Notes under the pieces: generated by a model
Told to the model about the DNA's origin: nothing
The model's database searches: none
What the model saw: the letters and a program-made list of their open reading frames with translations, nothing else
Made by a program: the position numbers and the translations under genes
Origin: Candidatus Sericytochromatia bacterium
Lineage (GTDB): Bacteria; Cyanobacteriota; Sericytochromatia; S15B-MN24; UBA4093
DNA: 19,506 nt
Reading direction: 5' to 3'
NCBI GenBank assembly: GCA_036676985.1
Contig: JAKFBU010000017.1
Span: 1 to 19,506 of the forward strand
Shown: positions 4,276 to 18,689 of the stretch, piece after piece
Layout: every line of letters begins with the position of its first letter
How positions within the stretch are numbered: the stretch's first letter is position 1

Positions 4276-5406
4276 TTATTGTGCCGTGAGGCTGACGACC
4301 TTGTTGCCCGTGGGATCGGCGACCCAGACCTTGCCGGCCGGGTCGTAGGTGATCGAGACCGGTGACAATGGCAGGGTCACCGAGCCTTGCGCCGTCCCGT
4401 CGAGACCGAAGTAGCGCACCTTGTTGGGGCCGGCACAGGCCACCCAGAGACGGGATCCCTGCGCCACGAGCGACACGGGTGAGTCGCCGGCCAGGGCGTA
4501 AGTCTGCACCGAGCCCGCGCTCACCTTCGAGAGGCTCTGCCCGGTGCGATTCGCCGTCCAGACGGCCCCGGCGGAGTCCAGGGCGACTGCCACCGGATTG
4601 GCCCCCACGCTGTAGGTTGCGGCGACGGCCCCATCGGCCCGGCTCACCTGGTAGAGGACGTTGTCGGTCGCCGCGACCCAGGCGTGGGTCGAGGAAAGGG
4701 CGATCGCATTCGGGGTGGCCGGTAGCGCGAAGGTCTGACTCGCCCCCGTGGCCGTCGCGATTCGGGTCAAGGAGCCTCCCCGGTGGGCGATCCAGACCTG
4801 GGCGGTGTCGGCGGCGAGGCCGGCCGGGTTCACAGCAATGGACATCGAGGCGACAAAGCGCACGTTTGGCGAGGTTGCCACCTGGTCGACGCGGGCCGAT
4901 CCCGAGCTGACGATCCAGAGGTCGGCCCCGAGGCCGGATGGGACGGCCGCCAGGAAGCTCGGCTGGGATAGGCCGGTGCTGTAAGGCGTGCCGACCGGAC
5001 TGGTTCCGAGCGCTCCGGCTGAGCTCGCGCTGAGCGGAGCGATGTCGCCGGCACGCAGGATCCAGGTCCCCCCCGTCCCGGCAAACGCGAAGCTGCGCGG
5101 GCCGCCCGACACCGTGAGGGGCTGGCCCAGGGTCGCGAGCGGCGTGGGGCTCGGGGTGGGCTGCACGTAGACGGGAGGATTGGTCGGTAGGGTCACGGTG
5201 GGCTGAGCCGTGCTGATGCCGCTCGACACCTGCGCGGGGTCGGGCGTGGCGTCACCGGTCTGAATGCCGCCCGAGACGGTCGGAGCCGGAGTGGCCTTCT
5301 TGGTCTTAGGGGTGACGCCCGCGATCTCGTCCTCGGGACATCCCACCAGGCAGAACGTGGCAAGGACGGCGAGGGGGGCTGCAAACCGGCGCGGAAACGT
5401 AGACAT
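4276..5406 (-). CDS. Lipoprotein with Pro/Thr-rich stalk and C-terminal beta-propeller (Vgb/YncE-like repeats), ~376 aa
   Basis: LVGC lipobox, PT-rich linker, ~40-aa repeats such as VGANPVAVALDSAGAVWTAN and PVSITYDPAGKVWVAD. Start is ATG 5406 or GTG 5415. Confidence 0.8.
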   Translation of the reverse strand: MSTFPRRFAAPLAVLATFCLVGCPEDEIAGVTPKTKKATPAPTVSGGIQTGDATPDPAQVSSGISTAQPTVTLPTNPPVYVQPTPSPTPLATLGQPLTVSGGPRSFAFAGTGGTWILRAGDIAPLSASSAGALGTSPVGTPYSTGLSQPSFLAAVPSGLGADLWIVSSGSARVDQVATSPNVRFVASMSIAVNPAGLAADTAQVWIAHRGGSLTRIATATGASQTFALPATPNAIALSSTHAWVAATDNVLYQVSRADGAVAATYSVGANPVAVALDSAGAVWTANRTGQSLSKVSAGSVQTYALAGDSPVSLVAQGSRLWVACAGPNKVRYFGLDGTAQGSVTLPLSPVSITYDPAGKVWVADPTGNKVVSLTAQ

Positions 5407-5424
5407 GCTGCTCACAATCGAACG

Positions 5425-7311
5425 CTAGGGAACTACGACCCGGATGGCGAAATTCAAGAGATCCGTCACGAAGATCTTGCCGTCGGTCGCGACGGCCAGG
5501 CCCGCTACCGCCGAGAACCGCGCGTCCGCGTTCGGTCCGTCCGCGGAGCCCTGCGTGCCATTCCCCGCCAGGGTGCTGACCACGCCGGCCGGGGTGATCT
5601 TCCGTATCGAGCAGTTGTTGCCGTCCGTGACGATCAAATTACCGCCAGGGTCCAGGGCCACGCTCATCGGCGTGAAGAACCGAGCGCTACTCGTCGCCCC
5701 GTCCACGAAGCCCGGCGTCCCATCACCTGCGATCGTGGAGACGGTACCTCCGCTCGAGATCTTCCGGATGCGGTGGTTGAGCGCGTCGCACACGTAGATG
5801 TTGCCCGCGGAGTCCCGGCACATCCCCGCCACTCCACTGAACTTGGCCGTGGCAAGTGGGCCATCCTCGAAACCTTGACCCGCATCTCCTGCAAACGTTG
5901 AGACGACCCCGTTCTCGATCTTTCGGATCTTGTGGTTGAAGGTGTCGCCCACGTAGACGACGTCCCCCACCGCGAGGATGCCTTGCGGCATGCTGAACGA
6001 GGCCGACGCTGCGGGGCCGTCGGCGGCCCCCCAGGTTCCGTCGCCCGCCAGCGTGGTCACGACCCCCGTCGGCGTCACCTTGCGGATCCGCTGATTCCCG
6101 GTGTCCGCCACGTAGAGATTGTCATTGGCCCCCACTGACAGGGCCATCGCCGAGAAGAACTGGGCCGATCCTCCCGCGCCGTCCAGGTATCCTGCGGTCT
6201 TCTGGCCGGCCAGGGTCGTGACGGTTCCGTCGGGGGTCACCTTGCAGATTCGATTTCCAATCTGCGCTTCGGACACCAAGAGGTTGCCGCGAGAGTCCAT
6301 CGCCATGCCATAGGGAATCGAGATCTCACCCGAGCCCGGATACTTACCGGTGGTCCCGCGCACGCCCAGGAAGGTGGCGATCGTGATCACGTCCCCCCCG
6401 GGCACCATGAGGCTGAACGGGCCCGAAACGGCATTGTTGGGAACCGCGACCGTCGCCGTGGTCCGGTCGGCCGAAACGCTCCAGGTCGCCGCGGGCACAT
6501 CGCCGAACATAAAGGTGTTGCGGCCGTCGATGGGGTCGAACCCCGCTCCCTTGATGGTCAGGTTGGTACCGGGAATCGCCGAGGAGGGCGTGACCGAGGT
6601 GACCATCGGGCGCGGATTGGCAAAGGAATAGTCGCCGGAAGCCAGCGAGATCGCCGCCATCGGATCCTGATCCAGAAGGATGGCCGAGCTCACGAGGTTC
6701 ACCACGGGCAGGAAGTCCGTCGCGTTGGTGAGTCCCCCGGCCTCGGTGAACCCACCGGTGGTCGGGTTGATCTTGTTGATCAGCGCGACCAGGCCCGCCT
6801 GATCGAGCTGCTTGAGGTTGGCCGCTGCCGCGAGCGCGGTGGTGTAGACGCTGACGCTGATTCCCGAGTTGGGGGTGCTGTTGGTGAGGCTCTGCCAGCC
6901 GCCGTTCCAGAAGAGGAGGGTCCGGATCCGGACGACGCCTGCGCCCACGCGATTCGGCTGGCCCCCGACTGAGAGCCCCTTCACCGCCTCCAGGACGTAG
7001 GGCTTCCCGTCGATCGGCGTGAAGTTGGTGAAGGTGAGCACGAAACTGCCCGAGGCATCCGTGACCGAGCTGCTGACCGTGTTGCCGGTGACCGCATCGA
7101 TCAGCGACACCGTCGCCGCGTTGGCGACCTCGCCGAGCGTGGCCTGGGTCTGATACCGGGGTTGGAAGCTCACGGTCCCCCGGACGGTGTAGGCGCCCTG
7201 AGCCGTGGGGGAGTCCGCGAGGGTCGTTTTCGGGACCAAGGGCGCCGGACAGCCGGCCAGCAGCACGACGGCGGCCAGACCAGCCAGTAACTTGCGAGTC
7301 GCGACGGGCAT
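5425..7311 (-). CDS. Lipoprotein: unassigned N-terminal domain + IPT/TIG domain + NHL-repeat beta-propeller (628 aa)
   Basis: GAGGAG RBS before ATG 7311; LAGC lipobox; IPT-like PMVTSVTPSSAIPGTNLTIKGAGF; repeated LYVADTGNQRIRKVTPTGVVTTLAGDG..G..DG...A.F NHL units. Confidence 0.88.
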   Translation of the reverse strand: MPVATRKLLAGLAAVVLLAGCPAPLVPKTTLADSPTAQGAYTVRGTVSFQPRYQTQATLGEVANAATVSLIDAVTGNTVSSSVTDASGSFVLTFTNFTPIDGKPYVLEAVKGLSVGGQPNRVGAGVVRIRTLLFWNGGWQSLTNSTPNSGISVSVYTTALAAAANLKQLDQAGLVALINKINPTTGGFTEAGGLTNATDFLPVVNLVSSAILLDQDPMAAISLASGDYSFANPRPMVTSVTPSSAIPGTNLTIKGAGFDPIDGRNTFMFGDVPAATWSVSADRTTATVAVPNNAVSGPFSLMVPGGDVITIATFLGVRGTTGKYPGSGEISIPYGMAMDSRGNLLVSEAQIGNRICKVTPDGTVTTLAGQKTAGYLDGAGGSAQFFSAMALSVGANDNLYVADTGNQRIRKVTPTGVVTTLAGDGTWGAADGPAASASFSMPQGILAVGDVVYVGDTFNHKIRKIENGVVSTFAGDAGQGFEDGPLATAKFSGVAGMCRDSAGNIYVCDALNHRIRKISSGGTVSTIAGDGTPGFVDGATSSARFFTPMSVALDPGGNLIVTDGNNCSIRKITPAGVVSTLAGNGTQGSADGPNADARFSAVAGLAVATDGKIFVTDLLNFAIRVVVP

Positions 7312-7322
7312 GCTTGGTCTCC

Positions 7323-9284
7323 TCACGGGATCAGGACCCGGATGCGGCTGTTGATCAGGTAGTCGGCGATGTACAACCGTCCGTCATTCCCCGGCAGCAC
7401 CCCGTAGACGGCTCCGAACAGCGCCTCCGAGGGGACGGCGTCCATGAGGCCAAGCGAGGCGGTACCGGCCACCGTGGACACGACGCCGCCCGAAATCTTC
7501 CGGACGGTGGAGCCCATCCCGTCTCCGACGTAGACGTCGCCGTTCGCCGCCACTCCGATGCCGACCGCGCCCGCGAACCGGGCCGACGAGGTCGCGCCGT
7601 CCACCCAGCCGATGGTGCCGTCCCCGGCGAACGTGCTGACCATGCCCCCCGAGATGAGCCGGATGGTCGAGTTGTCGGCGACGTAGATCTGGCCGACGGC
7701 GTCGACGGCCACGGTGGAGGGGCTGTAGAAGGAGGCCGAGGCGGCTTCTCCGTCCTGAGTTCCCCAGTTGCCCGAGCCGGCGATGGTGGTCACCACCCCG
7801 GCAGGCGTCACCCGCCGGATCTTGTAGTTCGAGGTATCGGCCACGATCACGTCGCCGTTGGGAGCGACCGCTAGCCCGATGGGGTAGCTGAACTGCGCGT
7901 TGGTCCCGGTTCCGTCCAGATTGCCCGACGATCCGTCCGCCGCTCCCGCCAGGGTGCTCACCGTGCCATCGGCCGCGATCTTTCGAATCTGATTGCCCAT
8001 GTTGTCCGCCACGTAGAGGATTCCCCCGGGGGCCCACACGATGCCGGCCGGACCCTTGAAGCTCGCGCTCATGGCCGGTCCATCGACCGAGGCATTGGCG
8101 CCGTTGCCCGCGACGGTCGTGACGGTGCCGTCCGGCGCGATCTTCCGGATGCGGTTGTTGAGGTAGTCGGCGGTGTAGAGGTTGCCGCTGGGATCCTGGG
8201 TGAGGCAGACCGGGGTGTTGAAGAGGGCCCCGAGACCCTTGCGATCGCGGTAACCGGATCCTCCGCCGGCCCACGTGTGGACGGTGCCATGGACCACCAC
8301 GAAGGGGCCGTTCCACTTCTGGCTCCCCTGGGAGAGCGTGACCCAGCCACCGCCCTGGGTGGGGCCCAGCGTGACGGTGTACTGGTCGTGGGCCGCATTG
8401 ACGCTCCAGGTCGCCGGTTCCGCGTTGCCGATGGTCAAGATGGTCGAGACGCCCGGATCCGGGAGGTTTTGTCCGGACAGGGTGAAGGTTCCTCCGGGGT
8501 TGATTGCGGTGGGACTGGCGGCAGCCGCCAGTTGAACGGTCGGAAGCCGCTTGGCATAGCGGGACGCGGGATCCGCACCCGCCGCGGCGTCGTACCCGAG
8601 GACCTCGATCGGATCCTGGTTGGAGGAGAGCGCCGCGTCGACGAGGTTGAAGACGGCCGCGAACTCGGCATTCGTGATGACCGTCCCGCCTTCGACGAAC
8701 GACGTGCCCGAGACATGGCCCATCAGATCCGCCTGTTGCCCCAGCGTGAGGGCGCGCAGGTTGGCGATCGCCGCCACGGCCGTCGTGGCCCTGGATAGAC
8801 TGATAGTACCGCCCGGAGAGCCGCTCGACAGGCTCAGCCAACCATCACTAAACTGCATCAAGGTTCGGATGCGGATCAGCGCAGTCCCGGCACGGTTGCT
8901 GTTGCCCCCAAGGGCGAGGCCCTTCACGGCCTCGAGGTAGTAGGTCTGGCCCGGTACCGGATTGAAGCCCGCCCCGAACTTCAAGACGAACCCGCCGTCC
9001 GCTCCCGATACCGTGGTGCCCTTGGTCGTGCCCGAGGTGGCCTCGATCAGGGAGACCGTGGCTCCGCTCGCGACATCGGCGGTGGTCGCGAGGATGTTCC
9101 GGGTGGCCACCGGCTCGCCGAGCGGCAGGTCCTGGATCTGGCCGTAGATGGTGGGGGCATGCACGGCGGACTGCTGCGACGTCAACGGGAGGGGTTTGGT
9201 GGTGGGGCCGGCCTGACAGCTCAGGACTCCGAAGCTGAGGGCGAGCAGGAATGGCAGGTGCCAGATGGAACGCGGATGAGCCAT
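7323..9284 (-). CDS. Paralogous lipoprotein: same unassigned N-terminal domain + IPT-like domain + NHL-repeat beta-propeller (653 aa)
   Basis: AAGGGG before ATG 9284; VLSC lipobox; about six NHL units (e.g. LYTADYLNNRIRKIAPDGTVTTVAGNG); clear similarity to the downstream gene. Confidence 0.88.
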   Translation of the reverse strand: MAHPRSIWHLPFLLALSFGVLSCQAGPTTKPLPLTSQQSAVHAPTIYGQIQDLPLGEPVATRNILATTADVASGATVSLIEATSGTTKGTTVSGADGGFVLKFGAGFNPVPGQTYYLEAVKGLALGGNSNRAGTALIRIRTLMQFSDGWLSLSSGSPGGTISLSRATTAVAAIANLRALTLGQQADLMGHVSGTSFVEGGTVITNAEFAAVFNLVDAALSSNQDPIEVLGYDAAAGADPASRYAKRLPTVQLAAAASPTAINPGGTFTLSGQNLPDPGVSTILTIGNAEPATWSVNAAHDQYTVTLGPTQGGGWVTLSQGSQKWNGPFVVVHGTVHTWAGGGSGYRDRKGLGALFNTPVCLTQDPSGNLYTADYLNNRIRKIAPDGTVTTVAGNGANASVDGPAMSASFKGPAGIVWAPGGILYVADNMGNQIRKIAADGTVSTLAGAADGSSGNLDGTGTNAQFSYPIGLAVAPNGDVIVADTSNYKIRRVTPAGVVTTIAGSGNWGTQDGEAASASFYSPSTVAVDAVGQIYVADNSTIRLISGGMVSTFAGDGTIGWVDGATSSARFAGAVGIGVAANGDVYVGDGMGSTVRKISGGVVSTVAGTASLGLMDAVPSEALFGAVYGVLPGNDGRLYIADYLINSRIRVLIP

Positions 9285-9359
9285 CGAGCAGGTCCCCTTC
9301 ACAGAAACAGGTGCGCATGCCGTACCGGTGCGGTTAAAGCTGGCTAGCCCGAAATACCC

Positions 9360-9452
9360 GCGCAAACGGATGCGCAAACGATATGCGATTATTATGTGGG
9401 AACGATTCTACCTTAACCGTAGGGCGGACATGCTTGCAATTCCTTGCAAGCA
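9360..9452 (-). promoter_or_regulatory. AT-richer regulatory region of the lipoprotein cluster: candidate -10 box and several operator-like repeats
   Basis: Minus-strand TAGAAT at 9405-9410; GCGCAAACG twice (9360-9368, 9372-9380); perfect inverted repeat TGCTTGCAA-N4-TTGCAAGCA at 9431-9452. Confidence 0.45.
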
Positions 9453-12112: not shown

Positions 12113-13303
12113 ATGCCCGTCCTACTCCTCGGGGTCTCGGGCGGGATCGCGGTCTATAAAGCCGTCGAGCTGACCTCCTGGCTGCGCAAGCGCGGCTGGG
12201 AGGTTCGCGTCGTCATGACGGAGAACGCCACCCGCTTCGTCACGCCCCTCACCTTCCAGACCATGTCCCGGCACCCGGTGCACGTTGACCCCTTCGAGAC
12301 GGGGGCCGCGGGCGTCGAGCACATCGACCTGGCCCGCGGCTGCGACCTGGTGGCCGTGGTGCCCGCGACGGCCAACACCATGGCCAAGCTCGCCAACGGC
12401 ATCGCCGACGACCTGCTCTCCACCACCCTGCTCGCCACCCGGGCCCCGGTCCTGGTGGCGCCCGCCATGAACACGGCCATGTGGGAGCACCCGGCGACCC
12501 GGGCAAACCTTGCGACCCTGCAGGCGCGGGGCGTTCAGGTGGTCATGCCCCAGGCGTCCGGAGAGCTCGCCTGCGGCGAGGAAGGGGCGGGCAAGCTCGC
12601 CGAGGTCGAAGTCATTGCGGCGGCCATCGAGCGCCGCTACCGGCAGGGGGCCTCCTTGGCGGGCGTGAGGGTGCTGGTCACCGCGGGCGGGACCCGCGAG
12701 CCCATCGATCCCGTGCGCTACATCGGCAACCGCTCGAGCGGCAAGATGGGCCATGCGATCGCCCAGGCCGCGGCCGAGCGCGGAGCCGCGGTCACGCTCG
12801 TCACGAGCTCCGGCCTGCCCGTGCCCCCGGGGGTCGAGGCCGTGCGCGTCGCCACCGCGGCCGAGCTCACAGCCGCCGTCTCCGAGCGCTTCGCGGGCTC
12901 CGACGTGCTCGTGATGGCCGCGGCCGTCGCGGACTACCGCCCGGTCGTGGCCGCCGACAGCAAGATCAAGAAGGGAAAGGGCTCCATCCATCTGGAGCTC
13001 GAGCCAACGGTCGACGTCCTCTCCACGCTCGCCCCGAGGAAGCGTCCCGATCAGCTGGTCGTCGGCTTCGCGGCCGAGACCAACGACGTCCTCGGCTACG
13101 CGGAGGACAAGCTGCGACGCAAGGGCCTGGACCTCATCGTCGCCAACGACGTCTCGCGGGGGGACATCGGCTTCGAGACCGACCAGAACGCGGTGACCGT
13201 CATCGGCCCCCAGGGCGTGGTCGCCGAGATCGCCCGCATGCCTAAGCTCCAGGTGGCCGACCGACTCTGGGAGCTGGTGGCCGAACGGCTTCCCCGCGCA
13301 TGA
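12113..13303 (+). CDS. coaBC: Bifunctional phosphopantothenoylcysteine decarboxylase / phosphopantothenate-cysteine ligase
   Basis: GVSGGIAVYK, PATANTMAKLANGIADDLL, PAMNTAM, LACGEEGAGK, TAGGTREPIDPVRYIGNRSSGKMG, VGFAAET, IVANDV. Confidence 0.97.
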   Translation: MPVLLLGVSGGIAVYKAVELTSWLRKRGWEVRVVMTENATRFVTPLTFQTMSRHPVHVDPFETGAAGVEHIDLARGCDLVAVVPATANTMAKLANGIADDLLSTTLLATRAPVLVAPAMNTAMWEHPATRANLATLQARGVQVVMPQASGELACGEEGAGKLAEVEVIAAAIERRYRQGASLAGVRVLVTAGGTREPIDPVRYIGNRSSGKMGHAIAQAAAERGAAVTLVTSSGLPVPPGVEAVRVATAAELTAAVSERFAGSDVLVMAAAVADYRPVVAADSKIKKGKGSIHLELEPTVDVLSTLAPRKRPDQLVVGFAAETNDVLGYAEDKLRRKGLDLIVANDVSRGDIGFETDQNAVTVIGPQGVVAEIARMPKLQVADRLWELVAERLPRA

Positions 13304-15498
13304 CCCCTGGCGCCCCCGAGCCGCTCTACGCCGACGTCCTGATCGACTCCCTGCCGGTCGCGCAGCAACGGCCCTACACCTACCGCGTGCCCTTGGCTCT
13401 GCAGGAGCGCGTCGGCATCGGGTCGGCCGTGGTGGTGCCCTTCGGCGCACGAGCCCGGGCGAGCGGCTACGTGGTCGGGCTGCCGGCAAAGGCCCCTGAT
13501 GCCCCCACCCGCGAGATCCGCGAGGTCCTCGGCGAGGCGGCCGTGCCTCCGGCGCTGCAGCGCCTGTTCGCATGGCTTGCCGAGCATTACTGTTGCTCGC
13601 TCGCTCAGGTGTACCAGATGGCCCTGCCCCGGGGCACCATGCGCGGCGAGGCCAAGGAGAAGACCCAGCTCGTCGTCACCATGCAGGGCGGCCTCGCGGC
13701 GGATCTCTCCAAGCGCCAGGTCCAGGTGATGGGCGTGCTCGCGTCCGCCGGCGGCCAGATGCCCATGGCCGACCTGGTCCGCGCGGCCCAGACCACGCCC
13801 TCTTTGCTCCGGGGCCTCGAGGCCCGGGGAGCGGTCGCCATCGCCGCCCAGCGCGTCCGGCGCGCCCCCGATCTGCCCAAGGCCGCGCATGGGGGCGCGG
13901 TCGAGCCCACGGCCGAGCAGGCCGAGGCCATCCGCGCCATCACCCAGGCGGATCCCGGCGAGGTCTTTCTCCTCTTTGGCGTGACGGGCAGCGGCAAGAC
14001 GGAGGTGTACCTCCAGGCGATTGCCGACACCCTCGATCGGGGTGAGCAGGCGCTCGTGCTCGTGCCCGAGATCGCCCTCACTCCGCAGACGGTCGCGCGC
14101 TTCCGGGCCCGCTTCGGGGATCGGATCGCGGTGCTGCACAGCGCGCTCGGCCAGGGAGAGCGCTATGACGAATGGCAGCGCCTCCGGACAGGCGAGGCCC
14201 GGGTCGGCATCGGGGCCCGCTCGGCCATCTTCGCGCCGGTCGCGCGTCTCGGGCTCGTCATCATCGACGAGGAGCACGAGAGCTCCTACAAGCAGGACGT
14301 GGCCCCTCGCTACCATGCCCGCACCGTCGCCTTGCAGCGGGCGGCCTTTGAGGGGGCGCGGGTCGTCCTGGGCAGCGCCACGCCGGCGGTCGAGACCCAT
14401 CACCGCGCGGTCTCGGGCGAGTACGGCCTGTTGCGCCTGTCGCGTCGCATCCACGATCGGGCTATGCCGCCCGTCGAGGTGGTCGACATGCGCGCGGAGC
14501 TGGAAGCGGGACATCGCTCCATCTTCAGCCGGCGGTTGGGCGAGGAGCTCACGGCCTGTCTCGAACGCGGAGAGCAGGCGATCCTGCTCATCAACCGCCG
14601 GGGCTATGCGACCTTCGTGCTGTGCCGGAGCTGCGGGGAGGCCGTGCGGTGCCCCAACTGCTCGGTATCCCTGACCTACCACCGCGCGGGCGAGTCCCTG
14701 CGCTGCCACTACTGCGACTACCGAGAGGAGCCGCCGAAGCGTTGCCCCTCCTGTCGCAGCCCCTACATCAAGCACTTCGGAGCGGGTACCCAGCAGGTCT
14801 ATGAGGCGGCCGCCGAGCTCCTGCCGGGCGCGCGCATCCTCCGGCTCGACAAGGACACTACGACGCGCAAGGGCTCTCACCAGCGGATCCTCGACGCCTT
14901 CGCCCAGGGCGAGGCGGACGTCCTCATCGGCACGCAGATGGTCGCCAAGGGCCTGGATCTGCCCCGGGTCTCCCTGGTGGGCATCATGGCGGCCGACTCG
15001 TCGTTGAACCTGCCGGACTTCCGCGCGGGCGAACGTACCTTCCAGCTCCTGACGCAGGTGGCGGGTCGCGCGGGACGCGGGGACATCGCGGGCCGCGTGG
15101 TGCTGCAGACCTACGCGCCGGATCATCCGAGCGTGCGCTTCGCGCAGGCCCATGACTTCGAGGCGTTCTTCGATTACGAGGTTCGCGAGCGCGAGGATCT
15201 GCGCTACCCACCCTTCATTCACCTGATCAACGTGGTGGTGAGCGCGGAGGACGCCGGGGCGGCCTGGAAGGTGGCCGGCACCCTGGTCCAGCGTCTGGAG
15301 GCCTTTCCGGAGGTCGTGGCACTCGGGCCCGCCGAAGCGGTGCTCGCCCAGCTGCGCGGCCGGCATCGGGTCCAGGTTCTGATCAAGGCGGCGGATCTAG
15401 GCGCGGCGCGCCGGGCGCTGAGAGAGGCGGTCCGCCAGACCGAGCGCCCCCAAGGGGTGCGCATGGCCATCGACGTGGAGCCCGCCTCACTTCTATAG
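13300..15498 (+). CDS. priA: Primosomal protein N' (replication restart helicase)
   Basis: GVTGSGKTEVY, LVPEIALTPQ, IIDEEHESSYKQ, four CxxC Zn ligand pairs, GTQMVAKGLD, QVAGRAGR; ATGA overlap with coaBC. Confidence 0.97.
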   Translation: MTPGAPEPLYADVLIDSLPVAQQRPYTYRVPLALQERVGIGSAVVVPFGARARASGYVVGLPAKAPDAPTREIREVLGEAAVPPALQRLFAWLAEHYCCSLAQVYQMALPRGTMRGEAKEKTQLVVTMQGGLAADLSKRQVQVMGVLASAGGQMPMADLVRAAQTTPSLLRGLEARGAVAIAAQRVRRAPDLPKAAHGGAVEPTAEQAEAIRAITQADPGEVFLLFGVTGSGKTEVYLQAIADTLDRGEQALVLVPEIALTPQTVARFRARFGDRIAVLHSALGQGERYDEWQRLRTGEARVGIGARSAIFAPVARLGLVIIDEEHESSYKQDVAPRYHARTVALQRAAFEGARVVLGSATPAVETHHRAVSGEYGLLRLSRRIHDRAMPPVEVVDMRAELEAGHRSIFSRRLGEELTACLERGEQAILLINRRGYATFVLCRSCGEAVRCPNCSVSLTYHRAGESLRCHYCDYREEPPKRCPSCRSPYIKHFGAGTQQVYEAAAELLPGARILRLDKDTTTRKGSHQRILDAFAQGEADVLIGTQMVAKGLDLPRVSLVGIMAADSSLNLPDFRAGERTFQLLTQVAGRAGRGDIAGRVVLQTYAPDHPSVRFAQAHDFEAFFDYEVREREDLRYPPFIHLINVVVSAEDAGAAWKVAGTLVQRLEAFPEVVALGPAEAVLAQLRGRHRVQVLIKAADLGAARRALREAVRQTERPQGVRMAIDVEPASLL

Positions 15499-15526
15499 AA
15501 AAGAGCCCGAGGCGATCGCCTCGGGC
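15497..15526 (-). terminator. Intrinsic terminator for the Hsp20 gene (possibly bidirectional with priA)
   Basis: Stem GCCCGAGGC / GCCTCGGGC with GATC loop, followed on the minus strand by TCTTTTCT. Confidence 0.7.
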
Positions 15527-15614
15527 CATAGACGACCTGACGAAACCAGGGATGAAGGTCCGGCGCCGCCCACAGGGCGGCACCGGAACCGTTTCGCCAG
15601 GTGTCCGGTCGGTC

Positions 15615-16703
15615 CTACATCGTCGTAGGAACGTTCGAGTTGATGACGATGCTCGCCTGGGGCAGGCTCGCGCCGCTACCGCTCTTGGGGAGCACGATGG
15701 TCAGCAGGCCGTTGAGGAAGTTGGCCTGGATCTGACCGGGCAGCACGCCCACCGGCAGGGGCAGGACGCGACGGAGGGTGCCGAAGCGGCCCTCGGCGAA
15801 GTGGTAGTTCACGGTAACGGTCCCGTTGCTCCAGGTGGGGCGACGGAAGGCGTTGAGCACGAGGCTCGAGCCGTGGATCTGGAGGTTGACGTCCTTGAGG
15901 TCGACGCCGGGCAGCTCGACGACGAGCAGGAAGGCATCGGGGGTCTCGGCCGAGTTCACGGCGGGAATGCTGTAGGCATCGGTGCCGTAGGTCGGCATGC
16001 CCTCGATGGGCCGGATCATGTTCTCGCTGGTCCGGGCGTAGGGCAGCTGCTCCTGAGGACGCATGGTCTCGAAGGAGCGGTTGAAGTCATACGGACGGGC
16101 CTCGAACTGGCGCGCCCAATCGAACGAGCGGGCGTAGTCGTAGGGACGGGTGTAGTCGTACGAACGCTGCCAGTCGTACTGACGGGTGTAGTCGTACGGA
16201 CGGGCGTAGTCGAACTGCTGGCGGAAGTACTCCGGACGGTTGTAGTCGAACTGACGGAAGTACTCCGGACGGTTGTAGTCGAACTGGCGGAAGTACTCCG
16301 GACGGTTGTAGTCGAACTGACGGAAGTACTCCGGGCGGTTGTAGTCGAACTGGCGGAAGTACTCCGGACGGTTGTAGTCGAACTGGCGGAAGTACTCCGG
16401 GCGGTTGTAGTCGAACTGCTGCCGGAAGTACTCCGGACGGGCGTAGCCGAAGCGCGGATCGTAGCCCTGGTAGGCGGGGGTGTAGTAAGGGGCCGCGGCA
16501 TAGGCCGAGGTCGGCATGTAGCCCCACGGAGCAACCGCGTTATACCCGGAATAGAAGGGCGCGCCATAGACCTGAGGATCGATCATGCCCTGCCGCGAGT
16601 AGTCGCTGTAATAGAGGCGGTTGAGGTCGTGGCGAATGCCATCCTGGCCGAAGCCGGAAAAGCCCGGGTGGAACGAGGAAGTGAGCGAAGGGGTCATCAA
16701 CAT
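15615..16703 (-). CDS. Hsp20/alpha-crystallin family small heat-shock protein with a very long Tyr/Phe/Arg-rich repetitive N-terminal extension (362 aa)
   Basis: Alpha-crystallin domain motifs ETPDAFLLVVELPGVD, EGRFGTLRRVLPLP, IQANFLNGLLTIVLPK and C-terminal IVI (IxI). AAAGGAG RBS before ATG 16703. Confidence 0.9.
   Translation of the reverse strand: MLMTPSLTSSFHPGFSGFGQDGIRHDLNRLYYSDYSRQGMIDPQVYGAPFYSGYNAVAPWGYMPTSAYAAAPYYTPAYQGYDPRFGYARPEYFRQQFDYNRPEYFRQFDYNRPEYFRQFDYNRPEYFRQFDYNRPEYFRQFDYNRPEYFRQFDYNRPEYFRQQFDYARPYDYTRQYDWQRSYDYTRPYDYARSFDWARQFEARPYDFNRSFETMRPQEQLPYARTSENMIRPIEGMPTYGTDAYSIPAVNSAETPDAFLLVVELPGVDLKDVNLQIHGSSLVLNAFRRPTWSNGTVTVNYHFAEGRFGTLRRVLPLPVGVLPGQIQANFLNGLLTIVLPKSGSGASLPQASIVINSNVPTTM
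16203..16439 (-). repeat. Coding tandem repeat: 7 units (5 x 33 bp, outer two 36 bp) encoding RPEYFRQ(Q)FDY(N/A)
   Basis: GGAAGTACTCCGG recurs seven times at 33/36-bp spacing with no spacers. Units differ by synonymous Arg codons, one extra Gln codon in the outer units, and a final Asn to Ala change. Confidence 0.97.
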
Positions 16704-16823
16704 GAGTACGGTTACTCCTTTCGGGGGGCCGACGCACGGCCCGTCATGGGGGCGAGTGACGTTGGCCAGGGAACGTGAGGGTTCGTTGTCAGGGTGTTTG
16801 AGGTGCGCCTCGGAACAGGAAAG

Positions 16824-16852
16824 AACATATCGTTCGGATGGCAACCTGTCAA
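16824..16852 (-). promoter_or_regulatory. Sigma70-type promoter of the Hsp20 gene
   Basis: Minus strand TTGACA-17 bp-TATGTT; a further perfect TATAAT at 16859-16864. Confidence 0.65.
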
Positions 16853-17063: not shown

Positions 17064-17103
17064 GGTTTGCGTCTGATCATTCAGCGTGAAAGCGGAACAG
17101 CGC

Positions 17104-17487
17104 ATGCCCCAAAAAATCTTGGTCGTGGAAGACGAAGTGACCAACCGCGAGGTGGCCGAGGTCATCCTCAAGAACCAGGGCTTCGAGGTGCTCGTGGCGA
17201 ACAATGGCCAGGAAGCCATCGAGATGGTCCAGCGGACCCCGCCCGACCTGATCGTGATGGACATCCTCATGCCGGTGCTGGACGGCCTCTCCGCGACGCG
17301 CGAGCTGAAGGCCGACCCGAAGACGGCCCACATCCCCATCCTCGTGGTGACCGCCAAGGCCTCCAACAGCGATCGCGACGCCGCCGAAGCGGCCGGTTGC
17401 GACGGCTTCCTTGCCAAACCCTACCGCAACAAGTCTCTGGTGGAGACGGTCCGCCAGTTCTTACCGGCGCAAGCCCCCAGTCCCTGA
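17104..17487 (+). CDS. Single-domain response regulator (CheY/DivK-like receiver)
   Basis: [23 protein letters not shown] (phospho-Asp), VTA, FLAKP; no output domain. Alternative start GTG 17086. Confidence 0.93.
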
Positions 17488-17538
17488 GCCGCGCGGCCCG
17501 ACCGGCCTTGCCGCAGGGCATCGACACTCCCTCGCAGC

Positions 17539-17566
17539 TTGTAATGGCGCCATTCGTGGCTATGAT
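17539..17566 (+). promoter_or_regulatory. Putative promoter of the sigma factor gene with an internal palindrome
   Basis: TTGTAA-16 bp-TATGAT; perfect palindrome AATGGCGCCATT at 17543-17554. Confidence 0.5.
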
Positions 17567-17654
17567 GGACCATGGATCGCCCTCAGATGGCTTGAGAGCT
17601 CGGTTTGGGTCCCTCTGGCCGTGGGCGTTCCATGCGAAGAGGGAGGCAGGTGCC

Positions 17655-18689
17655 ATGGATACGCACGGCGCAACAGATGGCCAGCTGTTCGACGAGCTCC
17701 TCACGGACGTGCCCGACGCGCCCGCCCACGACCTGGAGGAGATTGAGCATCAGCCGGAAGAACCCGGCTTGCGGGTGAGCTTCTTGGAAGAGGAGGCCCA
17801 ACCCTTCGAGGAGGCCCATCCTCCGGAGGCCGAAAAGGCCGAGAAGGTTGCCGCACCGGCCGATCCGGTCCAGGCGTACCTGCGCTCGATCGGAGCCATT
17901 CCGCTCCTGAAGGCGGACGAGGAGCTCAAGATCGCCCGCGACATGGGCCTGCCGGGACCGGTCGGCGAGCGCGCCCGCCAGCGCATGATCGAGGCGAACC
18001 TGCGACTGGTGGTCAGCGTCGCCAAGAAGTACCTGGGACGCGGCCTCTCCTTCCTGGACCTGATCCAGGAGGGAAACCTGGGCCTCATCCGGGCCGTCGA
18101 GAAGTTCGACTACACGCGCGGCTACAAGTTCTCGACCTACGCCACCTGGTGGATCCGCCAGGCCATCACGCGGGCCTTAGCCGACAAGGCCCGCACCATC
18201 CGGATCCCCGTCCACCTAGTCGAGACCATCAATCGTCTGCGGGCCATCTCCCAGCGCCTCACGCAGCGACTCGGCCGCAAGCCGACCGACGAGGAGATCG
18301 CGGCGGAGGCCAACGTGACGGTCGAGAAGATCAACGAGATCAAGAAGGTGGTCAAGGACACCATCTCGCTGGAGACGCCCATCGGCAAGGAAGAGGACAG
18401 CCGGCTCGGGGACTTCATCATCGATCGCGAGGCACCGGGCCCGGCCTCGGCGGTGGCCTCCCTCCTCCTGCAAGAGGAGATCCGCGGCATCCTGGGCACC
18501 CTGAGCGAGCGCGAGCGCCAGGTGGTGGAGCTGCGCTTCGGCATCGGCGACGGTCACGTCCACACCCTCGAGGAGATCGGACGCCTCTTCGGCGTCACTC
18601 GCGAACGGGTGCGCCAGATCGAGGGCAAGGCCCTCGCGAAGCTGAAGCATGCCATGACCGAGCGGCGCATGATCGAGTACATCGAATAG
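17655..18689 (+). CDS. RpoD/SigA-family sigma-70 factor, probably a group 2 (non-primary) paralogue (344 aa)
   Basis: GGAGG RBS. Region 1.2 [11 protein letters not shown]; region 2 [13 protein letters not shown]...[10 protein letters not shown]...[14 protein letters not shown]; region 3 ISLETPIG; region 4 [18 protein letters not shown]. Confidence 0.93.

Follow-up and report, generated by a model that had tools for sequence, protein, structure and literature searches.

An sHsp (small heat-shock protein) with an unusually long, lysine-free and repeat-bearing N-terminal arm is encoded in the 19,506 nucleotides of DNA analysed here (the window), which come from a Sericytochromatia soil bacterium of the cyanobacterial phylum. 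By analogy with yeast Hsp42, we propose that it may be a cytosolic sHsp whose multivalent sticker arm gathers both itself and its clients, acting as a sequestrase or scaffold, and we give this reading a probability of about 0.5.

Gene and protein layout

The gene lies on the minus strand at 16703..15615, with an ATG at 16703 and a stop codon at 15615-15617 in the list of open reading frames, and encodes 362 residues. Its parts and flanking signals are the following.

16824..16852, minus strand: sigma-70-like promoter TTGACA-17 nt-TATGTT (10 of 12 consensus matches)
16704..16817, minus strand: 5' leader of about 110 nt, with Shine-Dalgarno site AAGGAG at 16715-16720 (transcription start predicted from the promoter)
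15615..16703, minus strand: coding sequence of the 362-aa sHsp, including the stop codon (ORF and translation)
16602..16703, minus strand: conserved N-terminal head, aa 1-34, MLMTPSLTS..GIRHDLNRLYYSD (11-sequence alignment)
16437..16601, minus strand: Tyr/Pro/Gly/Ala-rich segment, aa 35-89, net charge +1 (translation)
16200..16436, minus strand: seven PEYFRQ(Q)FDYNR units, aa 90-168, net charge 0 (translation, Tandem Repeats Finder)
16059..16199, minus strand: degenerate [PSQ][YF]D[YW]xR 6-mers, aa 169-215, net charge 0 (translation, Tandem Repeats Finder)
15951..16058, minus strand: linker before the domain, aa 216-251, with the non-conserved M229 and M237 (translation, alignment)
15669..15950, minus strand: alpha-crystallin (HSP20) domain, aa 252-345 (Pfam PF00011)
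15642..15650, minus strand: C-terminal I-V-I (IxI) motif, I352-V353-I354 (translation)
15504..15527, minus strand: intrinsic terminator, a hairpin of 10 pairs (8 G-C) followed by a T-run

The sequence-only reading had seen an intact alpha-crystallin domain near 15684-15966, and Pfam indeed places one at 15669-15950 (PF00011, aa 252-345; score 36 bits, cut-off 20.8, E = 7.8e-9). The best solved relative is HspA (6ewn_A; E = 1.9e-14, aa 246-341). The IxI motif that was reported together with the domain is present, but outside that interval: it follows the domain, in the C-terminal tail (15642-15650), and neither I352 nor I354 varies among the 11 aligned sequences. This type of motif (IxI/V) is described as bridging neighbouring domains in sHsps (PMC9458469). 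The NCBIfam sHsp equivalogs score below their cut-offs (Hsp14 38.6 of 100 bits, archaeal Hsp20 36.5 of 140 and Hsp18_Clos 31.9 of 195).

At the other end of the protein, IRHDLNRLYY (aa 23-32) fits the R-x-x-[LM]-[ND]-R-[LM]-[FY] helix motif of sHsps, and M1, M3, R24, L27, N28, R29 and Y32 are nearly invariant among 11 sequences. The ordinary 158-aa sHsp of the same genome has an equivalent motif, LRDQLNRMFED. For a wider comparison we used 123 of 131 generic sHsp matches that could be anchored by E[LIV]PG; the 8 without this anchor were dropped and 4 repeat-only matches were excluded. The strict head motif occurs in 15 of the 123 and ends 18-39 aa ahead of the domain; in the 362-aa protein it ends at aa 31. 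In that generic set the N-terminal region has a median length of 58 aa and never exceeds 160; here it reaches 248 aa, in agreement with the earlier impression of an unusually long Tyr/Phe/Arg extension on an sHsp.

These features firmly support a predicted layout of an N-terminal helix motif, a low-complexity repeat insert of about 190-215 aa, an alpha-crystallin domain and an IxI tail. No hydrophobic N-terminal stretch, signal peptide or lipobox was seen on inspection of the translation, and the lack of a hydrophobic stretch suggests a cytosolic location. The domain search of the protein gave no RNA-binding domain, and an EF-hand_5 match at aa 104-112 was rejected (17.9 bits, cut-off 25.9). 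PsaA/PsaB and Photo_RC have no match in the genome (G000, 100% complete).

Translation of the arm and number of repeats

The N-terminal extension appears, from its coding signals, to be translated. An annotation artefact, either a start at M229 or M237 that would leave the extension unmade or a misassembled repeat array, seems very improbable to us. There are ATGs inside the ORF at aa 229 and 237, high-GC DNA leaves many frames open (a 408-aa ORF runs on the opposite strand), and the Logan contigs of all three DNA runs break within the 255-bp tandem array, with none bridging 16248-16388. Against an internal start, conservation extends to the head (MLMxPxLTS..RHDLNRLYY) and the AAGGAG site, which lie 5' of the extension, but not to M229 or M237 in the 11-sequence alignment. 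The frame also fits the GC content by codon position (0.58/0.43/0.88, against 0.75/0.49/0.89 in priA), with a GC3 of 0.885 in the repeats against 0.889 in priA. Among the strain differences listed for aa 1-245, 16 of 19 fall in third codon positions (binomial P = 7e-6) and 14 of 19 are synonymous; these counts cover the 27 in-CDS differences listed, and 46 more lie outside them. The length changes among those listed (+3, -3 and net -33 nt) are all in frame. Hence the start-near-domain alternative, raised beforehand as a possible refutation, failed.

The artefact reading is further opposed by four independent contigs (L040, L041, G016 and G018) that encode full-length proteins with head, arm and domain, and by unitig depths that match a multi-copy array: in run X1 the array unitigs have 0.9-3.5 times the flank depth, and the 31-mer multiplicity across the window is 1-3.3. 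An array of about seven units, plus or minus one or two, as read from the assembly through the 255-bp tandem array, fits these values. X1 is perhaps the source sample itself.

Regulatory signals and gene neighbourhood

The promoter scan gave two sites where shuffles predict 0.3, and L041 has a TTGACA upstream at a similar distance. The leader stretches GAAAGGAGTAACC and ATGTTGATG are identical in the window and L040, with AAAGGA in L041. The leader gave no good reason to assume an RNA thermometer or a known RNA family: folded as a single sequence it does not surpass shuffles (z = -0.45), the two-sequence consensus fold, in which an upstream CCUC pairs with the Shine-Dalgarno site, has one covarying pair, and Rfam gave P17 alone, below threshold (E = 0.31). 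With the CIRCE consensus, no site indicative of HrcA control was found in the window, and elsewhere in the genome there are three good ones (0-1 mismatch) and one with 4 mismatches.

The terminator scan is weak by itself, with a single site where 1.2 would be expected; the position of the site is nevertheless fitting, 88 nt past the stop codon and between convergent genes. Neighbouring genes encode PriA, CoaBC, a response regulator and a sigma factor. Linkage to the response-regulator/sigma pair was rejected, as it is not kept in G016 or G018. CGT is used for 13 of 29 Arg codons, against 5 of 76 in priA. A single RNA contig of 151 nt (depth 2) from a rhizosphere metatranscriptome covers nt 15692-15841 in the domain; this is too little to demonstrate expression, and DNA carry-over is possible. 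Altogether, the coding and flanking signals establish, at the level of sequence prediction, a real, monocistronic and translated sHsp gene of a non-photosynthetic member of the cyanobacterial phylum.

Composition of the arm

As the sequence-only reading had stated, residues 1-245 contain neither Lys nor Cys (Y38, R29, F23, P23, D19, Q18, K0, C0). Over the whole 248 aa, Tyr accounts for 15.3%, Phe for 9% and Arg for 12%, again with Lys and Cys at 0; aromatics make up 26% and there are just 12 Gly. In the genome background, taken from long high-GC3 ORFs, Lys is 3.49%, Tyr 2.5%, Phe 3.4% and Arg 7.2%, so that, at a level of about 3.5%, a 248-residue stretch should contain about 8.7 Lys.

The repeat block that had been called perfect is so in its five inner PEYFRQFDYNR units, which differ at CGC/CGT alone (synonymous), but not in the two 12-mers that flank them, which carry an extra Q and, in the last one, also N to A. 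Recounting gave the same contents for the 11-mers as before, with four aromatics, two Arg and two acidic residues each, and thus a net charge of zero. About seven 6-mers of the form [YF]D[YFW]xR follow the 11-mer block, and the degenerate block (aa 169-215) is likewise neutral. Tandem Repeats Finder detects a period of 33 (7.5 copies, 91% matches, 16197-16451) and a period of 18 at 16129-16212. In none of 500 shuffles are the aromatics as evenly spaced as in the arm (z = -3.05), whose charges also show better mixing (z = -4.3), with the same direction in 11 of 11 family members tested, although repeats space residues evenly by construction and these z-scores therefore overstate selection.

Charge-hydropathy (0.347 against a boundary of 0.415) places the arm on the disordered side. 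The label 'prion-like', in the sense of Q/N-rich and low in charge, does not suit it, as the low-complexity part has 12.3% N+Q and a charged fraction of 0.26; the idea of a functional amyloid also found no support, with Pro every 5-11 residues along the arm. An arm with so many aromatics (26%) could merely be insoluble.

The search for homologues of the repeats returned P0021, P0033, P0036 and P0051 alone, which have unrelated period-11 repeats without shared residues. No partner with the same mini-repeats was found among all genome ORFs of at least 80 aa, where at least three motif matches occur in the 362-aa ORF only.

Distribution and evolution of the family

Of 1.84 billion cluster representatives, 7 match the family at E <= 1e-30, and it occurs in 6 of 27 genomes of the same order and in 0 of 374 elsewhere in the phylum sample. 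Its absence from 21 of the 27 genomes suggests that the gene is dispensable on an evolutionary time scale, and in all five same-family genomes examined priA is directly followed by the response regulator and/or sigma gene. A metagenome scan added two loci (L040 and L041); a third, L042, proved to be a generic sHsp and was rejected. In the phylogenetic tree, from which the outgroups P0026 and P0030 were left out for want of an E[LIV]PG anchor, a long branch of length 1.17 leads to the family (support 100/97). All long members of three deep subclades have the arm, and arm-less short paralogues nest within the family as sister to the MMMSQ clade (support 92/82). Family members share an uncharged beta5-beta7 loop, RRPTWSNGTVTVNYH, with hardly any variation. 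The Atlas model of the homologue P0010 has a mean pLDDT of 0.54, and its neighbours, to be taken as leads only, are ordinary HSP20 clusters at 0.82-0.83.

Orthologues retain the aromatic/Arg/acidic extension, in line with the check proposed earlier. Across 18 members and 3,031 N-terminal residues we counted 0 Lys, 271 Arg and 303 Asp+Glu, pooled counts that are not independent because the members are related. The domains and tails of 15 full-length members contain 28 Lys in 1,729 residues. The net charge of the N-terminal region is -2 in 13 of the 18 members (range -3 to 0) while the Arg count runs from 4 to 29, and aromatics form 12-26% of these regions. P0010 was trimmed to the start MLMNP, which removed 39 upstream source-called residues, and the P0003, P0016 and G026 proteins are partial at contig ends.

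The repeat units differ by lineage (PEYFRQFDYNR, YDYARP, FEYGRP, DPRFV, AEYPR and EYPYARGFEG), and the N-terminal length of full-length members spans 121-253 aa. For instance, P0002 lacks the 11-mers although it shows 90% identity over aa 240-362. The alignments clearly point to quickly born and lost insert units, each combining a single Arg and a single Asp/Glu with one or two aromatics and, in most cases, a Pro. They show equally clearly three rules that the family keeps throughout: Lys is excluded, Asp+Glu offset the Arg residues, and the aromatics stand at even distances. Rapid repeat turnover is also a product of neutral slippage in a tolerant linker.

Comparison with known systems

Yeast Hsp42 offers the closest parallel in architecture. 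Its N-terminal extension is 242 aa long, against 248 here, and likewise precedes an alpha-crystallin domain; its disordered prion-like domain is reported to have 17.4% Tyr, against 15.3% in our arm, and to bind both itself and clients through its Tyr residues, while replacing Tyr with Ser abolishes CytoQ formation (PMC5881502). No search found homology between the arm sequences. Hsp42 is described as having a Tyr/Q/N-rich domain apart from an acidic disordered one, which restrains activity, whereas here there is no separate acidic domain and acidic residues are interleaved 1:1 with Arg, in tandem repeats without Lys and with only 12% N+Q. Moreover, the present sHsp is bacterial and confined to one order, with a function predicted from sequence.

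Canonical bacterial sHsps such as the cyanobacterial HspA (PDB 6ewn) and IbpA share the HSP20 domain (E = 1.9e-14 for HspA), the IxI tail and the R-x-x-L/M-N/D-R-L/M-F motif, and E. coli IbpA is reported to act as a sequestrase in a yeast assay (PMC9458469). The length of the N-terminal region, the long branch and the uncharged loop set our family apart from them. As the earlier reading had supposed, no bacterial sHsp with such an arm turned up in the literature searched, a search in which subscription journals were mostly outside scope. In C. elegans, Hsp-16.1 and Hsp-17 have extensions enriched in aromatic, Met and Arg residues, but these are about 39 aa long and non-repetitive; sequestrase activity is reported to need the aromatics, and N-terminal Arg to Lys or Arg to Ala changes increased activity (PMC9458469). 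This speaks against a simple sticker role for Arg, which is for this reason not a proven sticker in sHsp arms.

A different resemblance is seen with resilin-like polypeptides (GRGDSPYS, QYPSDGRG, GGRPSDSYGAPGGGN), which are built of tandem units with one Arg, one Asp, an aromatic and Pro. Repeats such as GRGDSPYS are reported to phase-separate upon cooling, with an upper critical solution temperature (UCST) raised by repeat number, aromatic content, and Arg more than Lys (PMC11826379). The units of all our lineages combine Arg, Asp/Glu, an aromatic and Pro in tandem in the same way. Resilin-like sequences are, in contrast, of insect or engineered origin, with Gly/Ser-rich spacers and one aromatic per 8-15 residues, while our arm is far richer in aromatics, poor in Gly and fused to an oligomerising chaperone domain. 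The likeness is one of composition alone.

Bacillus CotM and Stigmatella SP21 are sHsp-family spore proteins of resting-cell structures that share the alpha-crystallin domain, and some Bacillus coat proteins are rich in Tyr and Asp. Our protein differs from CotM and SP21 in having no export signal and no arm homology, and we know of no sporulation or cyst biology in its lineage.

Proposed function and alternative explanations

In the mechanism that we consider about as probable as all others together, the domain and the IxI tail would build an oligomer, as in other sHsps, and many arms would then be displayed on each particle. The arms may serve as multivalent stickers that use cation-pi contacts (Tyr/Phe-Arg), pi-pi contacts and salt bridges (Arg-Asp) to bind other arms as well as exposed hydrophobic or aromatic patches on unfolding proteins. 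Such arm-arm and arm-client binding would collect chaperone and clients in large assemblies. Given the match in composition to resilin-like polypeptides, the self-association may be sensitive to temperature, salt or hydration. A bolder version built on the same analogy, which we regard as doubtful, takes the arm as a natural thermoresponsive (UCST-type) polymer grafted on the sHsp oligomer. At ambient or cool temperatures, or in soil short of water, its charge-neutral Arg-Asp-aromatic mini-repeats would store the chaperone reversibly in a granule or gel, perhaps together with bound clients, and heating or rehydration would loosen the arms and free an active, aromatic-rich binding surface. The family rules would then be a selected 'grammar' that sets the transition point, with the unit number, varying between strains, as a tuning knob.

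It is possible, though we lean against it, that the protein is an ordinary holdase and the repeats a neutral, slippage-prone and tolerated linker between the N-terminal helix and the domain, with no role in higher-order assembly and a composition that mirrors nothing more than the tolerance of such regions in sHsps. The complete replacement of units between close relatives, as in P0002, agrees with such a linker, as do the twofold spread in N-terminal length, the nested arm-less paralogues, the many genomes of the order without the gene and the general enrichment of aromatics reported for sHsp N-terminal regions (PMC5881502). The exclusion of Lys is unexpected for filler, however: about 106 would be expected in the 3,031 residues at 3.49%. 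Nor does a neutral linker account for Arg minus (Asp+Glu) being held at -3 to 0 while Arg ranges from 4 to 29, for the largely synonymous strain differences listed in the arm, or for its presence in all long members of three deep subclades. Binding of a non-protein ligand by the arm (RNA, polyphosphate or membrane), or autoregulation of its own mRNA, would also dispense with protein assembly and seems quite improbable. Arg/Tyr-rich regions of many proteins bind RNA, and the leader of the sHsp gene, about 110 nt long, is conserved; a precedent is E. coli IbpA, reported to repress its own translation via the 5'UTR (PMC10474464). Each Arg of the arm is paired with an acidic residue, and the resulting net charge of about zero is unfavourable for polyanion binding; the domain search, too, gave nothing that binds RNA.

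A structural or material protein, in which the arm is a Tyr cross-linking substrate (for example for dityrosine) or forms solid matrix material of an envelope layer, cyst or resting cell, much as in the spore proteins CotM and SP21, is unlikely, if somewhat less so than ligand binding. The arm has 15% Tyr and a resilin-like composition (R, D/E, Y, P), with abundant Gly in P0008 and P0016, and the genome encodes other Tyr-rich proteins. Among the structural neighbour clusters of P0010 in the Atlas, one carries the automatic name 'Spore protein SP21 family', no more than a lead at a TM by query of 0.36, and the strong consensus promoter together with the CGT-rich Arg codons could mean high expression. 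The other Tyr-rich ORFs of the genome have lipoprotein-like leaders, however, while this protein has neither signal peptide nor lipobox; priA, coaBC, the response regulator and the sigma factor give no hint of envelope assembly, and no sporulation or cyst biology is known to us for the lineage.

Implications

Should the arm prove to be without effect, the family would be merely an sHsp with an odd linker. If it drives assembly as we propose, it would be an independently arisen bacterial counterpart of the yeast Hsp42 sequestrase, and the sticker-and-spacer rules of FUS-like proteins and engineered resilin-like polymers would be seen under selection in nature. Lineages have swapped the repeat unit many times while keeping the exclusion of Lys, the charge balance of the unit and the spacing of aromatics. 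Nature thus offers a comparative series, with no fewer than 15 full-length members whose arms measure 121-253 aa, in which the influence of unit sequence and number on assembly could be followed on a fixed oligomeric scaffold. They could also reveal how soil and groundwater bacteria of this little-studied, non-photosynthetic cyanobacterial lineage cope with heat or drying.

An sHsp with a charge-neutral aromatic arm

P0001, the 362-aa small heat-shock protein (sHsp) under study, is encoded on the minus strand within an ORF running from 16844 to 15615, and AAGGAG lies 11 nt upstream of its ATG at 16703. Pfam places the HSP20 domain at aa 252-345 (36 bits against a cut-off of 20.8), the closest solved structure being the HspA domain (6ewn; E 1.9e-14), and the tail carries the IxI motif I352-V353-I354. 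Residues 1-245 hold 38 Tyr, 29 Arg, 23 Phe, 23 Pro, 19 Asp and 18 Gln with neither Lys nor Cys, compared with 3.5% Lys, 2.5% Tyr, 3.4% Phe and 7.2% Arg in the long ORFs of the genome. Seven PEYFRQ(Q)FDYNR units, of which the inner five (PEYFRQFDYNR) are identical in protein and vary in DNA at CGC/CGT only, occupy residues 90-168 and are followed by 6-mers of the type [PSQ][YF]D[YW]xR at residues 169-215; the net charge is exactly 0 in each block. Tandem Repeats Finder reports a 33-nt array at 16197-16451 (7.5 copies, 91% matches), and neither Pfam nor an HMMER scan of cluster representatives gave a known domain matching the repeats.

Gene and arm are as the sequence-only reading described them, save for small details: the sHsp domain and the repeat blocks stand, whereas the IxI motif falls after the domain range it quoted and 12-mers account for two of the seven units. 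Its suggestion of a prion-like arm does not hold for the Q/N type, given 12.3% Asn plus Gln, a charged fraction of 0.26 and Pro at regular intervals. The hydropathy score of the arm is low (0.347 against a boundary of 0.415). CGT supplies 13 of the 29 Arg codons in aa 1-245 compared with 5 of 76 in priA, a bias that could be due to high expression or be inherited with the amplified unit.

The protein does not look secreted, because a hydrophobic leader is absent, unlike in other Tyr-rich ORFs of the genome, which have lipoprotein-like leaders. Four such ORFs (C23:195243-196061 and C56:241700-242353 and 243199-244839, all minus strand; C28:70122-70658, plus strand) combine leaders of the form ..A/T-G-C-S with tails extremely rich in Tyr (YYYPYY.., RFGYGR repeats; as many as 32 aromatics within 60 aa), and two end in cupredoxin-like sequence. 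The organism (67% GC) thus encodes several low-complexity proteins rich in Tyr and Arg that, by their leaders, are exported.

Position of the insert

The genome encodes one other sHsp, an ordinary protein of 158 aa (contig C1; Pfam 67.9 bits), which starts MALTRWEPSGMRTLRDQLNRMFED and shares the motif R-x-[DQ]-L-N-R-[LM]-[FY] with IRHDLNRLYY of P0001. Generic sHsps were anchored on E[LIV]PG (123 of 131 matches). In these, the N-terminal region measures 58 aa at the median and 160 aa at most, and in the 15 that have the strict N-terminal motif, 18-39 aa (median 25) separate its end from the domain. The corresponding points in P0001 are aa 31 for the end of the motif and about aa 249 for the start of the domain. 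By this comparison, therefore, the low-complexity sequence is an insert of some 190-215 aa at the junction of the canonical N-terminal helix and the domain.

Gene neighbourhood

The following features surround the gene.

13300-15498, priA, convergent with the sHsp gene
15527-15504, minus strand, GC-rich hairpin with a T-run (sequence scan)
16852-16824, minus strand, promoter-like TTGACA-17-TATGTT (sequence scan)
17086-17487, plus strand, single-domain CheY-like response regulator, divergent from the sHsp gene
17067-18689 (ORF; probable start 17655), plus strand, sigma-70 family gene with regions 1.2, 2, 3 and 4, after the response regulator

With a promoter-like site upstream and a T-run hairpin downstream, the sHsp gene therefore looks like a single-gene unit. 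The response regulator and sigma gene may form a conserved module; the sigma gene, with or without the regulator, comes directly after priA in each of the five same-family genomes examined in which the sHsp is missing. The window and L040, a metagenome contig with a family member, agree well in the leader of about 110 nt (16704-16817, minus strand). A stretch with CCUC some 85 nt upstream might base-pair with the Shine-Dalgarno sequence, support for this being limited to two sequences and one covarying pair. Escherichia coli IbpA reportedly represses its own mRNA via the 5'UTR (PMC10474464). No CIRCE site was found near the sHsp gene. Elsewhere in the window (4276-9377, minus strand), three NHL-repeat/beta-propeller proteins of 379, 633 and 684 aa lie in succession, one with an IPT/TIG domain.

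Translation and copy number of the repeats

Four independent lines say that the arm is translated. GC at codon positions 1/2/3 is 0.57/0.35/0.885 in the repeat part and 0.75/0.49/0.889 in priA. Upstream of the repeats, an alignment of 11 sequences shows next to no variation at M1, M3, R24, L27, N28, R29 and Y32. The DNA GAAAGGAGTAACC...ATGTTGATG is identical in the window and L040 (62% GC), and a further metagenome contig, L041, has AAAGGA...ATGCTGATG at the Shine-Dalgarno/start position. Initiation at M229 or M237, which the earlier reading had named as starts that would leave the arm unmade, is disfavoured, as these residues are not conserved while the head (aa 1-34) and Shine-Dalgarno sequence are. 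Logan contigs of related strains (runs X5 and X8) supply 27 listed differences within the coding sequence, with 46 more unlisted; among the 19 listed in aa 1-245, 16 affect the third position of a codon and 14 leave the amino acid unchanged (P 7e-6), and the listed length changes (+3, -3, and 64 nt to 31 nt, net -33) are all in frame.

No Logan contig spans 16248-16388. Unitig depths in run X1 (0.9-3.5 times flank depth) roughly follow the window's 31-mer multiplicities (1-3.3), and a copy number of about seven is therefore plausible.

Units replaced, rules kept

A word-seeded search with aa 240-362 returned ten relatives of 206-330 aa (67-90% identity over the domain). HMMER, run exhaustively over 1.84 billion cluster representatives, detected 9,904 sHsps at E<=1e-3 and only seven, including the query, at E<=1e-30. 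All long relatives share a head, aromatic repeats, domain and ..ASIVINS..-type tail. Orthologues keep the aromatic arm, and the sequence-only reading had listed its absence from them as one possible refutation. The unit itself differs by lineage: YDYARP/YEYARP in relatives P0002, P0004 and P0010, FEYGRP in L040, DPRA/DPRL in P0005 and P0006, AEYPR in P0007, EYPYARGFEGWARGT in P0008, DPR[FYW]xx in P0011-P0013 and genomes G016 and G018, and YGTDFRP..REYENYGDFRP in P0016. Over aa 240-362, P0002 and P0001 share 90% identity, yet P0002 lacks the 11-mers entirely; on this comparison, the window's array is therefore young.

Across 18 members (15 full-length, 3 partial), the 3,031 N-terminal residues contain 0 Lys, 271 Arg, 303 Asp plus Glu and 563 aromatics; domains and tails of the full-length members contain 28 Lys in 1,729 residues. 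Net charge of the arm is -2 in 13 of the 18 (range -3 to 0), while the Arg count runs from 4 to 29. In all 11 members tested, aromatics are more evenly spaced and charges better mixed than in shuffles (P0001: z -3.05 and -4.30; 0 of 500 shuffles as low), although pooled probabilities overstate the case because the sequences are related and repetitive. Replaced units with kept rules look like what selection on composition would produce.

Distribution and history

In a maximum-likelihood tree of domains and tails (34 rows; two planned outgroups omitted), the family forms a single clade (100/97) on a long branch. Armless short paralogues (P0014, P0017, P0019 and neighbours in G016 and G018) fall within this clade, where the MMMSQ subclade is their sister group (92/82), and are most simply derived by tandem duplication followed by arm loss. 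Short forms of 171 and 129 aa stand in tandem with long ones in G016 (C21, L029/L011) and G018 (C27, L012/L030); both forms may be made and could build mixed oligomers. Next to the G018 pair, an ORF of 1,238 aa or more (L030, 9540-13253, minus strand), open at the contig end, starts with PGLGVPDP tandem repeats.

In a phylum sample of 401 genomes, 6 of the 27 that belong to the window's order, representing 5 of 15 genera, yield a family match at E<=1e-25; the other 374 yield none. The coaBC-priA arrangement with a convergent sHsp is seen in the window's genome, G016 and G018, and on two short contigs, from G001 and G026, the convergent sHsp adjoins priA, the sole neighbour seen. Most simply, the gene would be old, bound to one locus and lost repeatedly; gain at the priA locus is conceivable.

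The genome (4.68 Mb, 67% GC, contamination 5.09%) is rated 100% complete and gave no PsaA/PsaB or Photo_RC match. Near-identical DNA was found in soil and groundwater metagenomes, and the records of relatives carry the labels 'Cyanobacteria bacterium' (groundwater) and 'Stenomitos sp.'. The latter label, on a same-genus MAG (L003/L009), is probably wrong, because Stenomitos is photosynthetic and the window's genome has no photosystem I/II core matches. The contig of that MAG stops within the repeat region, as expected if repeats break short-read assemblies.

Possible role of the arm

P0001 joins an sHsp core and an oligomerisation motif to a long arm of charge-neutral aromatic/Arg/acidic/Pro mini-repeats. 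N-terminal regions of sHsps are known to be aromatic-rich and client-binding. The Tyr-rich domain of Hsp42 reportedly mediates self-association and client binding, with Tyr-to-Ser exchange abolishing deposits (PMC5881502); the sequestrase activity of nematode sHsps is reported to require aromatics of their N-terminal extension, and IbpA is called a sequestrase (PMC9458469). Resilin-like Arg/Asp/Tyr/Pro repeats are described as phase-separating on cooling, increasingly so with repeat number, aromatic content and Arg over Lys (PMC11826379). The oligomer would display many arms, with stickers that could tie particles together and catch proteins as they unfold; P0001 would then act like a sequestrase or a scaffold, perhaps in a way that responds to temperature, salt or hydration. 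We give this reading a probability of about one half.

Its main competitor, which we consider unlikely though not negligible, is an ordinary holdase whose arm is a tolerated, slippage-prone linker. Loss of the gene in most relatives and complete turnover of the units would suit such a linker, but it accounts poorly for the exclusion of lysine, the coupling of charges and the mostly synonymous variation among strains. A structural or cross-linked role of the arm seems improbable, ligand or RNA binding slightly more so, and an artefactual arm would be very surprising.

Full-text searches, in a literature with few subscription journals, turned up no account of a bacterial sHsp carrying an arm of this kind. 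On its sequence, P0001 is an sHsp with an N-terminal region that has grown into a repeat polymer obeying set rules. The protein is an apparent independent parallel to Hsp42, and within the family natural variants of the arm form a series on a scaffold that stays constant.
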